Source: Escherichia coli (lineage in GTDB: Bacteria > Pseudomonadota > Gammaproteobacteria > Enterobacterales > Enterobacteriaceae). Taken from it: a stretch of 64,000 bases of DNA. This document shows, in pieces, positions 5,726 to 29,460 of the stretch. The notes beneath the pieces were generated by a model. The model was not told the DNA's origin, did no database searches, and saw only the letters and a program-made list of their open reading frames with translations. Numbering within the stretch: the stretch's first letter is position 1; the number at the start of each line of letters is the position of its first letter. The position numbers and the translations under genes were made by a program. The stretch lies in assembly GCF_003334815.1 (NCBI RefSeq), contig NZ_QOWO01000024.1; one strand, written 5' to 3'.

Positions 5726-7374
5726 TTGGGACGATACTGAATCAGCACCAGACGCTCCTGACGATCGATGGCATCTGCGGGCGGAATGGCGAGACTGTTG
5801 ATATCTTCATCGCGGTCAACCGAAAGCACGAGAGTAATAATCCCCTCCTGACGATGTTGATTAAGCCAGTTTGCGAACTCATCACCGCTGACAAATCTCC
5901 CTTTCGCATCCGGATAATTAAGGCCGTATTTCAACTCACCTGTCTGGCGATACATGATGATGTCATCGCGTTGCAGGCTCCATGCCAGACCTGCGGCAAC
6001 ACCGACGCTATCAGTAAGAATATAGCGGCTTGGCTGAAGTGATTCTTGTGTCATCTCGACAAAAAATTGCGGATGTTTTCCTTCCATAACTCTGTCAGGA
6101 ATTGAAAATCCTACCAGCAACGCCAGCCCCAGCGGGCAAAGCGCGGCAAAAGGCCAGGTCTTTTCGACGTTTGTTAAGGTGTACCAGCCGAAAAATGCCC
6201 ATAGCGAAAAAATCGACCAGGCACAAAAGACTTTATAGCTCTCGAAGGTTTGCCACACCGGCGTGTTCATTGGTCCCCACGGGGAGACCACAAATGTGGC
6301 AATAATGCCAGTGACGCCAAAAGCGATGTTAATCCAGCCATTAATCCGCAGCGCCAGAGGATTATTTTTTGCTGCCAGCAAAGCGTAATGCGCCATCAGC
6401 ATTGCCAGAGATGCAAAGCAGGAAAGAATATAGGTGGGCAATTTACCTTTAGCGACGGAGAAAAACAGCAGCGGCATTATCGTCCAGCTCAACAAATAGA
6501 CGGTTGCGGAATGCTTGCGGTTTTTCCAGCCTGTGTACAGTGCACCGGGGAGTAATCCCAGCCACGGCAGGCTACCGGCAATGATGACCGGCACGTAGTA
6601 CCAGAACGGAGCTCTATGTTGGGCATCATCCAGTGCAAAGCGTTGAATATGCTCAACCCAGAAAAAATAGTGCCAGAAGTTAGGCTCCCGCTGCGCTATC
6701 GCCAGTCCCCAAGGGAGAACCGTCAGTACGCAACTGATAACCGCCAGCCAGCCGTAAATAAAGAGATCTTTCCAGCGTTTTTGCGTCGCTACCCATGGCA
6801 GCACGCTTAATACCGGCACGGCAAGGGCGAGAAAACCTTTGGTCATCACCCCCATGCCGCAGGTGATTCCCAGCAGTAAAAATCCTGCGCTTTTGCCTTT
6901 CCACGTCTGTGCCTGCATTGCCAGCCAGAAGCTGCACATTCCCGCCACCAGCCAGAATGCAATAAACGGATCGAGCACGGCATAAGTGCCGATGGCATAG
7001 ACAATAAACAATGAGAGATAAATTACTGTGGCGAGTAGAGCCAGACGTTTATCGCGCCATAAGCGCAGAGTAAACCAGGTCACCAGCGCGGCAGTTAACA
7101 GGGTCGCAAAGATAACGCCTGCCCGCACACCAAAGTTATTCGCGCCAAATAGCCATTGCCCAATGCTGTTAATCCAGTATCCGGCAATGGGTTTTTCGAA
7201 ATAACGTAGCCCTAACAGATGGGGCACAATCCAGTCGCCGGATGCCAGCATTTCTCGACTGATTTCCGCATAACGCGTTTCATCGGGTTGCCAGAGCAGA
7301 CGCGTGCTGATCGGTAACAGGTAATAGCAGGCAATAAACGCGAAGAGGCCGATAAGGTAACGTACCGATTTCAT
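5722..7374 (-). CDS. arnT: Undecaprenyl phosphate-alpha-L-Ara4N : lipid A transferase
   Basis: 550-aa polytopic glycosyltransferase (family 83-like) in arn operon position. Confidence 0.93.
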
Positions 7375-8264
7375 CAGCGACTACCCGCAATTTGTTGGCA
7401 ACCCAGCCAGCCTTCACGTCCGGCAATATTTCCGCGAACAACTTGTCCGAGCGGCAACGTCTCTGATAACAGTTCGCTTAAAGGGCAAAATGTCACGCCT
7501 TCCTGAGCTGCGCGTTTGAGGAGATCCACAAAATTATGCTGATAAGCGCAGCCTTCAACTTCTGCATGAATGGTATAAACCGGCGTGCCTTTATCTCGCA
7601 GGATGCGGTTGAGTAACCAACCGTTAAAATCTTCTGCTTTCACATCCCGACCAATCACTTCATCCCAGGTGGGTAAGGTCACCGGAATTTGCGCAGTGCC
7701 AGGGTTTCCTGATTCGAGCAATGGACGGAACGGCATGGCCCCACGACAATCGCTGTTGTAGCGCAAATGGAACGCTTCTTTTGCTTCGATCACCTTCTGG
7801 TCGGCACGCCAGCCCGCAGCGGCAGAACAGGTTACCGGTTGACCGATAATCTCTTCCAGAGTGCGAAGACCGCGTGCAATATCGTCGATCATTGTTTGCC
7901 GATCCCAGTTACCGCTACGGGCTTGCCAGGCATGGTGATCCCAGGCGTGCAGGCCGACTTCGTGATGTTTAGCCGCTTCACGAATGATATCGGCATTGGC
8001 ATGACCAATCTCTTTACCTGGCCAGGCCGTACCTGCCAGTAAAATATCCCAGCCATAAAGCGATGCCGCGTTTGAGCGCAGCATCTTCCACAAAAACTGT
8101 GGCTTCACCAGTCGCCAGAGATGGCGGCCCATATTGTCCGGGCCGACGCTGAAAAAAATGCTGGCCTGAATATTATGCTTACTCAAGATTTCCAGCAGAC
8201 GCGGCACGCCTTCACGGGTGCCACGAAAGGTATCGACATCAATGCGTAAGCCTACTTTGGTCAT
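7374..8264 (-). CDS. arnD: 4-deoxy-4-formamido-L-arabinose-phosphoundecaprenol deformylase
   Basis: 296-aa polysaccharide-deacetylase-fold protein; start overlaps the arnA stop. Confidence 0.92.
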
Positions 8265-10242
8265 GATGGTTTATCCGTAAGATCAACGGTGCGCAGGAAG
8301 AAATCCAGCGTTTCGTCGATGGTTTCCTGCATATCAATTTTCGGCTCCCAGTCCAGGCAGCGGTGGGCATTGCGGATGCTCGGTTTACGATGCTCTACGT
8401 CCTGATATCCTTTGCCGTAGTAGCTGCTACTTTCGACAACGCGAAAGCCCGCAAACGGTGGGAAATGATGGCGCAGCGGATGTTTTTCGAAGCTCGCCAG
8501 CAGCATCTCGCCCAGTTCCTCAATGCTCGCTTCGTTCTCAGGATTGCCAATGTTGATAATTTCACCGTCGCAGCGATTTCCCGCATTTTCGATAATGCGG
8601 TATAACGCCTCGATACCATCGCGAATATCAGTAAAGCAGCGTTTTTGTTTTCCGCCATCAATCAGCTTAATCGGTGAACCTTCTACCAGATTGAGAATGA
8701 GTTGCGTAATAGCGCGGGAGCTGCCAATTCGCGCTGCATTAAGGTTATCCAGTCGTGGTCCCATCCAGTTAAACGGGCGGAAGAGGGTGAACTGTAAACC
8801 CTCTTTTTCGCCATAGGCCCAGATCACCCGATCAAGTAATTGTTTTGATACCGAATAAATCCAGCGTGGTTTATTCACCGGGCCGACGATTAAATTAGAA
8901 TGGTCCTCATCGAAGTATTTATCGCTACACATCCCATAAACTTCTGAAGTTGACGGGAAGATGATTCGCTTACGGTACTTCACGCAGTAGCGGATAATGC
9001 GCAGATTCTCTTCAAAATCGAGTTCAAATACGCGCAGCGGGTTGCGGGTATATTCAATCGGCGTGGCTATCGCCACCAGCGGCAAGACGACATCACATTT
9101 TTTGACATGATACTCAATCCATTCGGAATGAATACTGATATCGCCTTCAACAAAGTGAAAATGCGGATGATTCAGAAAACGGCTTATCGCATCGCTGCCA
9201 ATATCCAGACCGTAAACTTCATAATGATCTTCGCGCAGCAGGCGTTCTGTCAGATGGTTGCCAATAAAGCCATTCACCCCGAGGATGAGTACCCGGGTAC
9301 GGCGTCGGGCGGTGCAGGCAGGCTGGCTATTCAAGCGTGAACCTTGCACCAGGCCCAGCGTCTGCGCTAATTGCGAGCCCTGCATAGTAATGCCGTCGCC
9401 CGCCTGTCCGGTGACGATTTCCAGCGCGCCATCGCCACAGGCAATCAGCAGTGGCGCAACAGAAATCACGCTCCCCGGCTGTGCTTTGCTGGCACGAGGA
9501 TGAACACGCGACGACCAGACGGTGAATTTCTGATTGCCAACATAGCTGAAGGCACCCGGCCACGGATCGGCAACGGCACGTACCATGTTGTGCAGTACGG
9601 ATGCCGGTTTATGCCATTCAAGGAAACTGTCATCCGGCGTTCTGCGACCAAAACAGGTGGCTTCGTTTTCGCGCTGGGCGATTTCCAGAATATTACCGTG
9701 TTTAATGGCGGGTAATGTCTGTTCCAGTAGCTGGCGCGCGGCATGGCACAATTTATGATGCAGCGTAATAGCGATATCGTCTGGCGCAATGGCAATGCGC
9801 AGTTGCGCCACAATGGCCCCGGCATCGGCACGTTTCACCATTCGGTGCAATGTAACGCCAGTTTCCGTTTCACCGTTGACCAGCACCCAGTTCAGCGGCG
9901 CGCGACCACGATATTTTGGTAACAGCGAACCATGCAGATTAAATGCACCTGCGGGAGCGAGCTGCAAAATTTCGTCGTAAATAAGATGGCGATAATAAAA
10001 AGAGAAAATCACATCTGGCGACAGTTGGGCAATGCGTTCCACCCACAGCGGATGATTAACGTTATCCGGCGCATAAACCGGAATGCCTCTTTCCGCCGCC
10101 AGACGAGCCACCGAACCATAAAAGGCTTTTTCACCGGGATTATCAGTATGGGTAAAAATGGCGCTAATTTCGTAACCGGCAGCCAGCAGGGCTTCAATAC
10201 CGAGGCATCCCATATCGTGGTAGGCAAAAACGACGGTTTTCA

Positions 10243-25907: not shown

Positions 25908-27266
25908 ATGTTGAGTATTTTTAAACCAGCGCCACACAAAGCGCGCTTACCTGCCGCGGAGATCGATCCGACTTATCGTCGATTGCGCTGGCAAATTTTC
26001 CTGGGGATATTCTTTGGCTATGCGGCTTACTATTTGGTTCGTAAGAACTTTGCGCTTGCTATGCCTTATCTGGTTGAGCAGGGATTCTCACGCGGTGATT
26101 TAGGTTTTGCCCTTTCGGGGATCTCGATTGCTTATGGATTTTCGAAATTCATCATGGGTTCGGTATCGGATCGCTCGAATCCGCGCGTTTTCCTGCCCGC
26201 AGGTTTGATTCTGGCGGCGGCAGTGATGTTGTTTATGGGCTTTGTGCCATGGGCGACGTCGAGCATTGCGGTGATGTTTGTACTGTTGTTCCTCTGCGGT
26301 TGGTTCCAGGGGATGGGGTGGCCGCCGTGTGGTCGTACTATGGTGCACTGGTGGTCGCAGAAAGAACGTGGCGGCATTGTGTCAGTGTGGAACTGTGCGC
26401 ACAACGTCGGTGGTGGTATTCCGCCGCTGCTGTTCCTGCTGGGGATGGCCTGGTTCAATGACTGGCATGCGGCGCTCTATATGCCTGCTTTCTGCGCCAT
26501 TCTGGTGGCATTATTCGCCTTTGCGATGATGCGCGATACCCCGCAATCCTGTGGCTTGCCGCCGATCGAAGAGTACAAAAATGATTATCCGGACGACTAT
26601 AACGAAAAAGCGGAACAGGAGCTGACGGCGAAGCAAATCTTCATGCAGTACGTACTGCCGAACAAACTGCTGTGGTATATCGCCATCGCCAACGTGTTCG
26701 TTTATCTGCTGCGTTACGGCATCCTCGACTGGTCACCGACTTATCTGAAAGAGGTTAAGCATTTCGCGCTAGATAAATCCTCCTGGGCCTACTTCCTTTA
26801 TGAATATGCAGGTATTCCGGGCACTCTGCTGTGCGGCTGGATGTCGGATAAAGTCTTCCGTGGCAACCGTGGGGCAACCGGCGTTTTCTTTATGACACTG
26901 GTGACCATCGCGACTATCGTTTACTGGATGAACCCGGCAGGTAACCCAACCGTCGATATGATTTGTATGATTGTTATCGGCTTCCTGATCTACGGTCCTG
27001 TGATGCTGATCGGTCTGCATGCGCTGGAACTGGCACCGAAAAAAGCGGCAGGTACGGCAGCGGGCTTTACCGGGCTGTTTGGTTACCTGGGCGGTTCGGT
27101 GGCGGCGAGCGCGATTGTTGGCTACACCGTGGACTTCTTCGGCTGGGATGGCGGCTTTATGGTAATGATTGGCGGCAGCATTCTGGCGGTTATCTTGTTG
27201 ATTGTTGTGATGATTGGCGAAAAACGTCGCCATGAACAATTACTGCAAGAACGCAACGGAGGCTAA
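25908..27266 (+). CDS. glpT: Glycerol-3-phosphate:phosphate antiporter (MFS)
   Basis: 452-aa 12-TM MFS protein; divergent from glpACB. Confidence 0.95.
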
Positions 27267-27270
27267 TGGC

Positions 27271-28347
27271 ATGAAATTGACGCTGAAAAACCTTAGCATG
27301 GCGATCATGATGAGCACTATAGTCATGGGAAGCAGTGCAATGGCGGCGGACAGCAACGAAAAAATAGTCATCGCCCATCGCGGTGCCAGTGGATATTTGC
27401 CGGAGCATACGCTGCCAGCAAAAGCGATGGCGTATGCGCAGGGAGCGGATTATCTGGAACAGGATTTGGTGATGACCAAAGACGACAATCTGGTTGTTCT
27501 GCATGACCATTACCTCGATCGTGTTACTGATGTTGCCGATCGTTTCCCGGATCGGGCGCGCAAAGACGGTCGTTACTACGCGATAGATTTCACGCTGGAT
27601 GAAATTAAGTCGTTGAAATTTACCGAAGGTTTCGATATTGAAAACGGTAAAAAAGTGCAGACTTATCCGGGGCGTTTCCCAATGGGTAAGTCCGACTTCC
27701 GGGTGCACACCTTTGAAGAAGAGATTGAATTTGTTCAGGGGTTAAATCACTCTACCGGGAAAAATATCGGTATTTATCCAGAAATCAAAGCGCCGTGGTT
27801 CCATCATCAGGAAGGGAAGGATATTGCGGCAAAAACGCTGGAAGTGCTGAAGAAATATGGTTACACCGGTAAAGACGATAAAGTTTATTTGCAATGTTTT
27901 GATGCTGATGAGCTGAAGCGTATTAAGAATGAGCTGGAACCCAAAATGGGCATGGAGCTCAATCTGGTACAGCTGATTGCCTATACCGACTGGAATGAAA
28001 CGCAGCAGAAACAGCCGGATGGAAGCTGGGTTAATTACAACTACGACTGGATGTTTAAGCCGGGTGCCATGAAACAGGTGGCGGAATATGCAGATGGTAT
28101 TGGTCCGGATTACCATATGTTGATTGAGGAGACATCGCAGCCGGGTAATATCAAACTCACTGGCATGGTGCAAGATGCTCAGCAGAATAAACTGGTAGTG
28201 CATCCTTATACCGTGCGGTCAGATAAACTGCCTGAATACACTCCTGATGTGAATCAGTTATATGATGCTCTGTATAACAAAGCGGGTGTAAATGGGCTGT
28301 TTACTGATTTCCCTGATAAGGCAGTAAAATTTCTTAATAAAGAGTAA
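27271..28347 (+). CDS. glpQ: Periplasmic glycerophosphodiester phosphodiesterase
   Basis: Start set at MKLTLKNLSMAIMM (signal peptide) giving 358 aa; HRGASGYLPEHT active-site region. Confidence 0.93.
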   Translation: MKLTLKNLSMAIMMSTIVMGSSAMAADSNEKIVIAHRGASGYLPEHTLPAKAMAYAQGADYLEQDLVMTKDDNLVVLHDHYLDRVTDVADRFPDRARKDGRYYAIDFTLDEIKSLKFTEGFDIENGKKVQTYPGRFPMGKSDFRVHTFEEEIEFVQGLNHSTGKNIGIYPEIKAPWFHHQEGKDIAAKTLEVLKKYGYTGKDDKVYLQCFDADELKRIKNELEPKMGMELNLVQLIAYTDWNETQQKQPDGSWVNYNYDWMFKPGAMKQVAEYADGIGPDYHMLIEETSQPGNIKLTGMVQDAQQNKLVVHPYTVRSDKLPEYTPDVNQLYDALYNKAGVNGLFTDFPDKAVKFLNKE

Positions 28348-28388
28348 TGTTACTGCAGGATGGCGTTCATGCGCCATCCTGTCTCATA

Positions 28389-28595
28389 TCAAATTTTTCC
28401 AATCGCCACTAATTGTTCCATGCACATTTGTAGTAAAAACAGTGGACTGCCTTCTACCGGCTTTTCTTTAGCCAGCAACGAAATCTGTCGATAGAAAGTT
28501 GGTTCGAGAGGAACGGAACACAATTCACCTGCAATGCTTTTCAGCGTTAACTCTGGTTGTAAGGCGATGCCTAATCCCTGTCGAATAAAATTCAT
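28389..28595 (-). pseudogene. yfaH: YfaH, 68-aa remnant resembling the C-terminal part of a LysR-type regulator
   Basis: Short ORF with no HTH domain; the gene-remnant interpretation comes from my recollection of K-12 annotation. Confidence 0.6.
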
Positions 28596-28809
28596 CGCTG
28601 TATCCGCCTGATTAAATTCACATTTTATCTGCTGGGCGCACTATTAGTGGTAGTGGCTGGTGGAATCTATGCGCTGCAAATGAAGGGTAAAAGCGGTGTC
28701 AAGCTAGTAGTGGCAAAAGAAATTCATTAATACGACACGTTTCATTAAGATTTTCCTCAGGTAACCACCTATAGTCATTGTCGTTAATAAAAATGACAGG
28801 CGATAGGGT

Positions 28810-29460
28810 ATGGCAGTTTCAGCAAAGTACGACGAATTTAATCACTGGTGGGCAACAGAGGGCGACTGGGTTGAAGAGCCTAACTATCGCCGTAATGGTA
28901 TGAGCGGGGTGCAATGCGTCGAGCGCAACGGCAAAAAGCTGTATGTAAAGCGCATGACGCATCATCTGTTTCATTCCGTACGTTATCCGTTCGGCCGACC
29001 AACGATTGTCCGTGAGGTTGCGGTAATTAAAGAACTGGAACGGGCCGGTGTCATCGTGCCGAAGATCGTTTTTGGTGAAGCGGTGAAAATTGAGGGTGAA
29101 TGGCGAGCGTTGCTGGTGACTGAAGATATGGCGGGGTTCATCAGCATTGCTGACTGGTATGCCCAGCATGCAGTATCGCCTTATTCTGACGAAGTACGGC
29201 AAGCCATGTTGAAAGCAGTGGCGCTGGCGTTTAAGAAAATGCATAGCATTAATCGTCAGCATGGCTGTTGTTATGTTCGCCATATCTATGTGAAAACAGA
29301 AGGTAATGCAGAAGCTGGTTTTCTTGACCTGGAGAAAAGTCGTCGCCGCTTGCGTCGCGATAAAGCGATTAATCATGACTTCCGCCAGCTGGAAAAATAT
29401 CTGGAGCCAATCCCCAAAGCGGACTGGGAGCAGGTGAAAGCGTATTACTACGCCATGTAA
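28810..29460 (+). CDS. inaA: Acid-inducible Kdo/WaaP-family putative lipid kinase InaA
   Basis: 216-aa ORF; sequence fits the InaA family; position between yfaH and yfaE. Confidence 0.88.
   Translation: MAVSAKYDEFNHWWATEGDWVEEPNYRRNGMSGVQCVERNGKKLYVKRMTHHLFHSVRYPFGRPTIVREVAVIKELERAGVIVPKIVFGEAVKIEGEWRALLVTEDMAGFISIADWYAQHAVSPYSDEVRQAMLKAVALAFKKMHSINRQHGCCYVRHIYVKTEGNAEAGFLDLEKSRRRLRRDKAINHDFRQLEKYLEPIPKADWEQVKAYYYAM

Follow-up and report, generated by a model that had tools for sequence, protein, structure and literature searches.

A single 1,879-bp deletion underlies yfaH of Escherichia coli K-12, very probably the dead tail of a LysR-family regulator gene

The effector-binding fold of LysR-type regulators is two-lobed. 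Full-length regulators of this family are encoded at the position of yfaH in other strains of E. coli, and they are the closest described counterparts of the short reading frame found in strain K-12. In E. coli TCM3e1 and in O157:H7 FRIK804, a LysR gene (299 or 292 aa, minus strand) and an MFS transporter gene (396 aa, plus strand; positions 7079-8269 of the TCM3e1 locus, L001) are arranged divergently between glpQ and inaA. The accessions are WP_000176738.1 and WP_000176733.1 for the regulators (O157:H7, TCM3e1) and WP_000660231.1 for the transporter. The full-length regulator contains an HTH_1 domain (residues 3-63, E=1.2e-17) and a LysR_substrate domain (residues 88-267, E=1.5e-36), the latter matching model positions 2-188. 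The best NCBIfam matches are GltC-, CidR-, and CynR-like for the regulator and PRK05122-like for the transporter; all are generic and lie far below the cut-offs.

In the curated K-12 sequence NC_000913.3, yfaH (b2238) is listed as a pseudogene at 2349687..2349893. Two further records treat the same 68 residues as a protein, namely the NCBIfam 'equivalog' model NF007272, which has 68 positions, and the UniProt entry YFAH_ECOLI, 'Putative protein YfaH'. In strain construction, a marker has been put in place of the gene, which thereby served as a neutral linked site (PMC2714960). In a study of the Cpx system, the yfaH transcript was detected by qRT-PCR and was 7.7-fold up in ΔcpxR with nlpE overexpressed (PMC9600279).

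In the present study, we analysed a 64-kb stretch of E. coli DNA, called the window below, in which positions 28340-28815 are 100% identical to E. coli K-12 MG1655. The yfaH copy in the window (28595..28389) is the same in sequence and coordinates as that of NC_000913.3 and of PGAP. We found that the K-12 locus is the result of a single 1,879-bp deletion between the 8-bp direct repeats TTTATCTG, one inside each gene of the LysR/MFS pair. The best explanation overall, about which we have very little doubt, is that the locus is a deletion scar and that yfaH is the dead tail of the LysR gene, an ordinary pseudogene.

The gene order in the window is glpT-glpQ-yfaH-inaA-yfaE-nrdB, with yfaE and nrdB on the minus strand. 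glpT occupies 25908-27266, glpQ ends at 28347, and an intact inaA gene (216 aa, plus strand) occupies 28810..29460. A probable bidirectional terminator hairpin lies at 28355..28382, between the convergent 3' ends of glpQ and the LysR relic. In folding, it formed a perfect 12-bp stem with a centroid of -22.5 kcal/mol and a z-score of -6.1 relative to shuffled sequences. The terminator scan did not call this hairpin, because it has no T-run on the plus strand. NC_000913.3 also lists an 11-codon gene, YoaM (b4779), antisense in the nrdA-nrdB gap at 2347350..2347385 (L021 1351-1386).

The initial annotation had described a 68-aa ORF resembling only the C-terminal part of a LysR-type regulator, without an HTH domain, and had read it as a decayed regulator gene. 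The ATG-initiated ORF is indeed present at 28389..28595 on the minus strand. By itself, such an ORF is meaningless, because 43 ORFs of at least 30 aa overlap the surrounding 4 kb. The resemblance to LysR is borne out by two comparisons. When the frame was extended to 28634, it matched Pfam LysR_substrate at model positions 131-189 of 209 only (E=1.7e-6), and tblastn aligned the relic to residues 213-291 of the full-length LysR protein encoded at the same locus in other E. coli, with 86% identity (E=4e-39). The homology continues for 36 bp past the yfaH ATG, up to 28631; therefore, the boundary of the yfaH ORF is not the boundary of the relic. The LysR-family pseudogene, as delimited by tblastn, Pfam, and PGAP, extends over 28389..28631 (minus strand) and comprises codons 213-292 of a 292-aa gene and the stop codon. 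yfaH, as given by the ORF listing and NC_000913.3, is an accidental ORF within it. PGAP labels the relic 28389-28631 as 'LysR family transcriptional regulator, incomplete, missing N-terminus'. NC_000913.3 omits the extra 36 bp of LysR homology as well as the adjoining MFS relic, whereas PGAP has both.

What is missing from the pseudogene is its promoter, its start codon, the HTH domain, and about 60% of the effector domain. HTH_1 (PF00126) is absent from the yfaH ORF, from the extended frame, and from the whole 64-kb window, as the initial annotation had stated for the ORF. Of the effector-binding domain (PF03466), 59 of 209 model positions (~28%) are left. Neither a promoter nor a start codon of its own has been retained, since the 5' ends of both genes and the divergent intergenic region are deleted. 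yfaH cannot act as a LysR regulator, because it has no HTH domain and only about 28% of the effector-binding domain. The relic is like the intact LysR genes in its position beside glpQ and in the 86% identity of the last 79 residues; it is unlike them in that residues 1-212 and the promoter are gone and in that otherwise invariant residues have changed. In relatives, an intact gene with both HTH_1 and LysR_substrate stands at the same locus, and this comparison, which had been proposed as a check, agrees with the pseudogene status in the reference annotation. Thus, the locus has the features of a gene relic, namely partial homology to an intact gene at the same locus, an identifiable lesion, and relaxed constraint, the last seen in a small and biased sample.

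The lesion was located by comparing K-12 with an intact allele. BLAST gave two blocks, of which 28200-28636 aligned to the LysR side and 28624-28950 aligned to the MFS 3' end and inaA; the two blocks overlap by 13 aligned bases. In the intact alleles, TTTATCTG occurs twice, 1,879 bp apart, at 6284 and 8163 in TCM3e1 (L001) and at 6245 and 8124 in FRIK804 (L002). K-12 has one copy, at 28624-28631. In a base-level three-way alignment, the sequence to the left of this copy is that of the LysR side and the sequence to the right is that of the MFS side. This sole remaining copy of the repeat, at 28624..28631 in the alignment of K-12 with the intact allele, is the deletion junction. Lost with the 1,879 bp were codons 1-212 of LysR, codons 1-362 of MFS, and, between them, the promoter region shared by the two divergent genes. 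Two promoterless 3' ends, of LysR and of MFS, are left, placed back-to-back at 28624-28631.

The second of these ends, at 28626-28730 on the plus strand, is a second pseudogene, overlooked in the initial annotation and unannotated in the curated NC_000913.3. It was delimited by tblastn and PGAP and consists of the last 34 codons and the stop codon of the 396-aa MFS gene. tblastn matched it to MFS residues 363-396, with the 34 codons at 28626-28727 followed by the stop, so that the translation ends in '...YLLGALLVVVAGGIYALQMKGKSGVKLVVAKEIH*'. MFS residues 1-355 had no tblastn match elsewhere in the window. An MFS transporter has 12 transmembrane helices (MFS_1, about 400 aa), and only the last 34 codons of one are present here. 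The PGAP label for this relic is 'hypothetical protein, incomplete, missing N-terminus'.

The history of the locus may be reconstructed as follows. In the Enterobacteriaceae, the ancestral order was glpQ, the LysR gene (292 aa, minus strand) divergent from the MFS gene (396 aa, plus strand), inaA in some members, and yfaE. In the lineage leading to K-12, a single event between the 8-bp repeats removed 1,879 bp; illegitimate recombination and replication slippage are both suggested as its mechanism by the microhomology at the junction. After the deletion, the LysR relic has most probably drifted neutrally, and the yfaH ATG arose from an Ile codon inside the relic, in a frame that is accidental.

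The alternative that fares best against this history, and which we nevertheless consider improbable, is that YfaH is a genuine 68-aa protein, a fragment of the LysR effector domain that acquired a new ATG and was kept by selection after the deletion. Such a protein might, for example, modulate other LysR-type regulators, or it might do something else. In agreement with this possibility, the 68-codon frame is open in K-12 and in four of six sampled deletion-type genomes, the ATG is common to all sampled deletion alleles, and the qRT-PCR signal (PMC9600279) means that some expression is possible. The 68-position model NF007272 and the UniProt name could also be taken as support. However, NF007272 was built on the fragment itself and hence is not independent. 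The fragment covers about 59 of 209 domain-model positions, too little for the two-lobed effector-binding fold. The deletion took the native promoter, and a scan of both strands over 28300-28900 turned up nothing promoter-like. In addition, the gene has been exchanged for a marker to serve as a selection site (PMC2714960).

The sequences of the alleles speak against a protein more directly. The five intact E. coli/Escherichia alleles all have ATC AGT (Ile-Ser) where yfaH begins with ATG AAT (Met-Asn); therefore, the yfaH start codon is a mutation that occurred within the relic lineage. K-12 departs from nine full-length orthologs, drawn from six taxa, at four residues that never vary among them (Y to C, H to Q, P to A, and L to Q). 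The last of these, in the otherwise invariant GIALLP motif, falls inside the yfaH ORF. In E. coli W and WP3-S18-ESBL-09, a 1-bp deletion shifts the frame after codon 27, and PGAP calls the gene 'frameshifted'. The exact 61-mer with this 1-bp deletion was found in 189 genomes, so that at least 189 genomes carry the frameshift. W, CAU16175, and EC19 have stop codons shortly before the ATG.

Constraint has also been relaxed. Over 80 shared codons, pN/pS was 0.12 in the intact group and 0.45 in the deletion group, about a fourfold difference, in sums that are pairwise, non-independent, and based on small counts. Among six deletion-type genomes, the LysR relic had a nucleotide diversity of 0.028 and the MFS relic one of 0.041. 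The corresponding values in the same genomes were 0.0097 in glpQ, 0.0084 in the 79 bp upstream of inaA, and 0.0018 in inaA; these are likewise pairwise sums. Diversity in the relics is thus 3-20 times that of the flanking genes in this small and biased sample of six genomes, which also served for pN/pS and were picked down the identity ranking of the yfaH region itself, a choice that inflates the diversity. A conserved, expressed small protein under purifying selection, the finding that the initial annotation had named as contrary to its reading, is not what the ATC of the intact alleles, the frameshift, and the rise in pN/pS describe. What NF007272 and YFAH_ECOLI describe is a fragment of a gene rather than a family of proteins.

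Having preferred the deletion scar to a selected protein, we can also set aside a slower death of the gene. The initial annotation was right that the regulator gene is dead, but the decay was not gradual; the gene was truncated by one deletion between the 8-bp repeats. Gradual decay via point mutations and small indels, to which we attach hardly any probability, predicts degraded HTH sequence upstream of 28595 in another frame, and nothing was found in its favour beyond the general expectation that pseudogenes erode. With the full-length protein as a tblastn query, LysR residues 1-212, with the HTH-coding sequence, had no match in the whole 64-kb window (best E=0.27, at an unrelated place). 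Three-frame translations upstream of the yfaH ORF contained nothing LysR-like past 28631, and directly beyond 28631 lies the MFS 3' end, on the other strand. The search for HTH remnants in other frames upstream of 28595, which had been recommended, thus came back empty; as the gene was truncated by one deletion, it was bound to fail. The junction alignment refutes gradual decay.

The direction of change is given by the relatives. The order glpT-glpQ-LysR-MFS-inaA-yfaE was found in E. whittamii and Escherichia sp. E1V33. Escherichia sp. MOD1-EC7003 has LysR-MFS-inaA-yfaE, in a locus sequence that stops short of the glpQ side, and Pseudocitrobacter also has LysR-MFS-inaA-yfaE. LysR-MFS-yfaE is the order at two Kluyvera loci. 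Salmonella enterica Djakarta and Citrobacter werkmanii have glpT-glpQ-LysR(292)-MFS(396)-yfaE-nrdB-nrdA, without inaA. The LysR orthologs of these relatives are 63-98% identical to the TCM3e1 protein. As the intact pair stands at the same place in the relatives, the LysR/MFS pair is ancestral and the K-12 state is derived. In Salmonella, Citrobacter, and Kluyvera, the MFS gene adjoins yfaE directly and inaA is absent at the locus; therefore, it is inaA that is the lineage-specific insert, in Escherichia and Pseudocitrobacter, and the LysR/MFS pair that occupied the locus ancestrally.

The reverse polarity, with the K-12 form ancestral and the pair of O157:H7 and others a later insertion, has next to no chance of being correct. 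It could appeal to the 1,058 E. coli genomes of the EcN type, which have neither gene, and to the proneness of the locus to indels, such as the 356-aa ORF of O157 and an IS1 in one strain. However, K-12 holds in-frame 3' fragments of both genes, which are derivable only from an intact pair, and in Salmonella and Citrobacter the pair is flanked by glpQ and yfaE, while in Kluyvera and Pseudocitrobacter it stands beside yfaE. The outgroup synteny contradicts an ancestral K-12 form.

We then took a census of the alleles in 5,426 complete E. coli genomes. The K-12-type junction was spanned contiguously in 3,105 of the 5,426, and the intact 2.2-kb pair was covered at >=80% in 1,213. The EcN-type spacer of 201 bp between glpQ and inaA, containing neither gene, was found in 1,058 of the 5,426 genomes, and other variants (e.g. 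the IS1 insertion of strain H31) accounted for about 50. Many strains matched the K-12 query only over its left 297 bases, after which the match broke off. We take the deletion type to include phylogroups A and B1 (K-12, W, E24377A), the intact type to include phylogroup E (O157:H7), and the empty type to include phylogroup B2 (EcN, APEC O18).

Of the EcN-type spacer (L004 4898-5098), the first ~120 bp have no counterpart in the intact allele. With blastn-short, homology to the intact allele begins only from the MFS stop codon onward. Megablast aligned a further 17 bp, in which 12 of 17 positions match by eye, too weak a match to call. The outgroup synteny suggests that the EcN type may be an independent, older deletion.

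The glpQ-inaA interval is an indel hotspot. In O157:H7 FRIK804, glpQ and the intact LysR gene are separated by an additional 356-aa ORF (L002 4476-5546, minus strand), for which we found no match in NCBIfam, Pfam, or PADLOC. Another copy of this O157-type ORF lies at L010 2080-3147, and a frameshifted relic of it lies at L009 1-747. In strain EC19, the ORF is broken, and the locus also has the K-12-type deletion. The contig that holds the L010 copy (JAIJJM010000334.1, 3.5 kb, 'MAG: Collinsella sp.') encodes proteins 93-100% identical to E. coli MFS, LysR, the O157-type ORF, and GlpQ. This contig almost certainly comes from E. coli and was mis-binned into an actinobacterial MAG.

The deletion also changes how the DNA upstream of inaA should be read. 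The initial annotation had placed the stress-responsive inaA promoter in a 214-bp spacer. The length is exact, as the gap from the yfaH ORF to inaA is 28596-28809, but most of it is relic. The gap consists of 36 bp of LysR relic (28596-28631), 105 bp of MFS relic (28626-28730), and 79 bp (28731-28809) that allele alignment identified as the true intergenic region upstream of inaA. This 79-bp block is common to all three E. coli allele types and was matched by all 5,426 genomes. The inaA promoter is therefore expected only in these last 79 bp. The best -10 candidate for the predicted inaA promoter is the hexamer TATAGT at 28770-28775 (plus strand), which was read from the sequence and does not vary among the aligned Escherichia sequences. 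It would put the transcription start at about 28781-28783. A generic promoter and terminator scan of 28300-28900 on both strands reported nothing, the inaA promoter included. The strict sigma-70 scan did not call this candidate because there is no good -35, and such a miss is expected of an activator-dependent promoter.

At class II MarA/SoxS/Rob promoters, the marbox is in the forward orientation and overlaps the -35 position, some 18-19 bp away from the -10 hexamer. The marbox consensus, reportedly that of Martin et al. 1999 (Mol Microbiol 34:431, cited in PMC5257004), is AYnGCACnnWnnRYYAAAYn. On both strands upstream of the inaA ATG, ACGACACGTTTCATTAAGAT at 28732-28751 (plus strand) was the only match with <=3 mismatches to this consensus. 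The candidate resembles class II promoters in being forward, in having its 3' end over the predicted -35 position, and in lying 18 bp upstream of the predicted -10 TATAGT. It differs from the class II consensus at 3 of the 14 specified positions, G4 of GCAC included, and similar matches occur at chance frequency: the scan with <=3 mismatches gave 139 matches across the window against 135 expected and so has no discriminating power. Between EcN and K-12, the candidate has three differences, two at unspecified positions and the third (W, T to A) still satisfying the consensus. In cryptic Escherichia clades, the candidate is poorly kept. No backward (class I) marbox candidate with <=4 mismatches was found upstream of 28790. 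The initial annotation had been unable to place a MarA/SoxS/Rob box with confidence, and we share this caution; the marbox at 28732-28751 is a prediction to which its position lends support. From the sequence, the predicted inaA promoter is most likely activator-dependent, with TATAGT as the -10 and a forward marbox over the -35 position. A passage in PMC5257004, citing Rosner & Slonczewski 1994, gives inaA as an experimentally known MarA/SoxS target.

A CpxR box, GCAAAtgaaggGTAAA, has been predicted for 'yfaH-inaA' at -119 of inaA (PMC9600279, supplementary file 4). This site, at 28676-28691 on the plus strand, is inside the dead MFS coding relic, where it corresponds to the codons LQMKGK; in intact strains, the same site is ordinary coding sequence. 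We see only a small chance that a new 68-aa protein, translated from an ATG derived from ATC, came into being through the deletion, or that the deletion rewired the control of inaA. Rewiring could have come about if read-through from the MFS gene was lost and relic sequence, with the CpxR-box-like GCAAA-N6-GTAAA at 28676-28691 in it, was brought up to the inaA promoter. If the new protein or the rewiring were real, the stress response of inaA would depend on which of the three allele types a strain carries.

yfaH is already known and annotated as a pseudogene, and the feature is ordinary. The result matters little in that it confirms the existing annotation. The exact lesion, the assignment of the adjacent 105 bp to the 3' end of the MFS partner, and the frequencies of the alleles in 5,426 genomes are new but routine. 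For inaA, only the 79 bp before the gene should be treated as regulatory DNA, and motif predictions in 28596-28730, such as the published CpxR box, fall in dead coding sequence.
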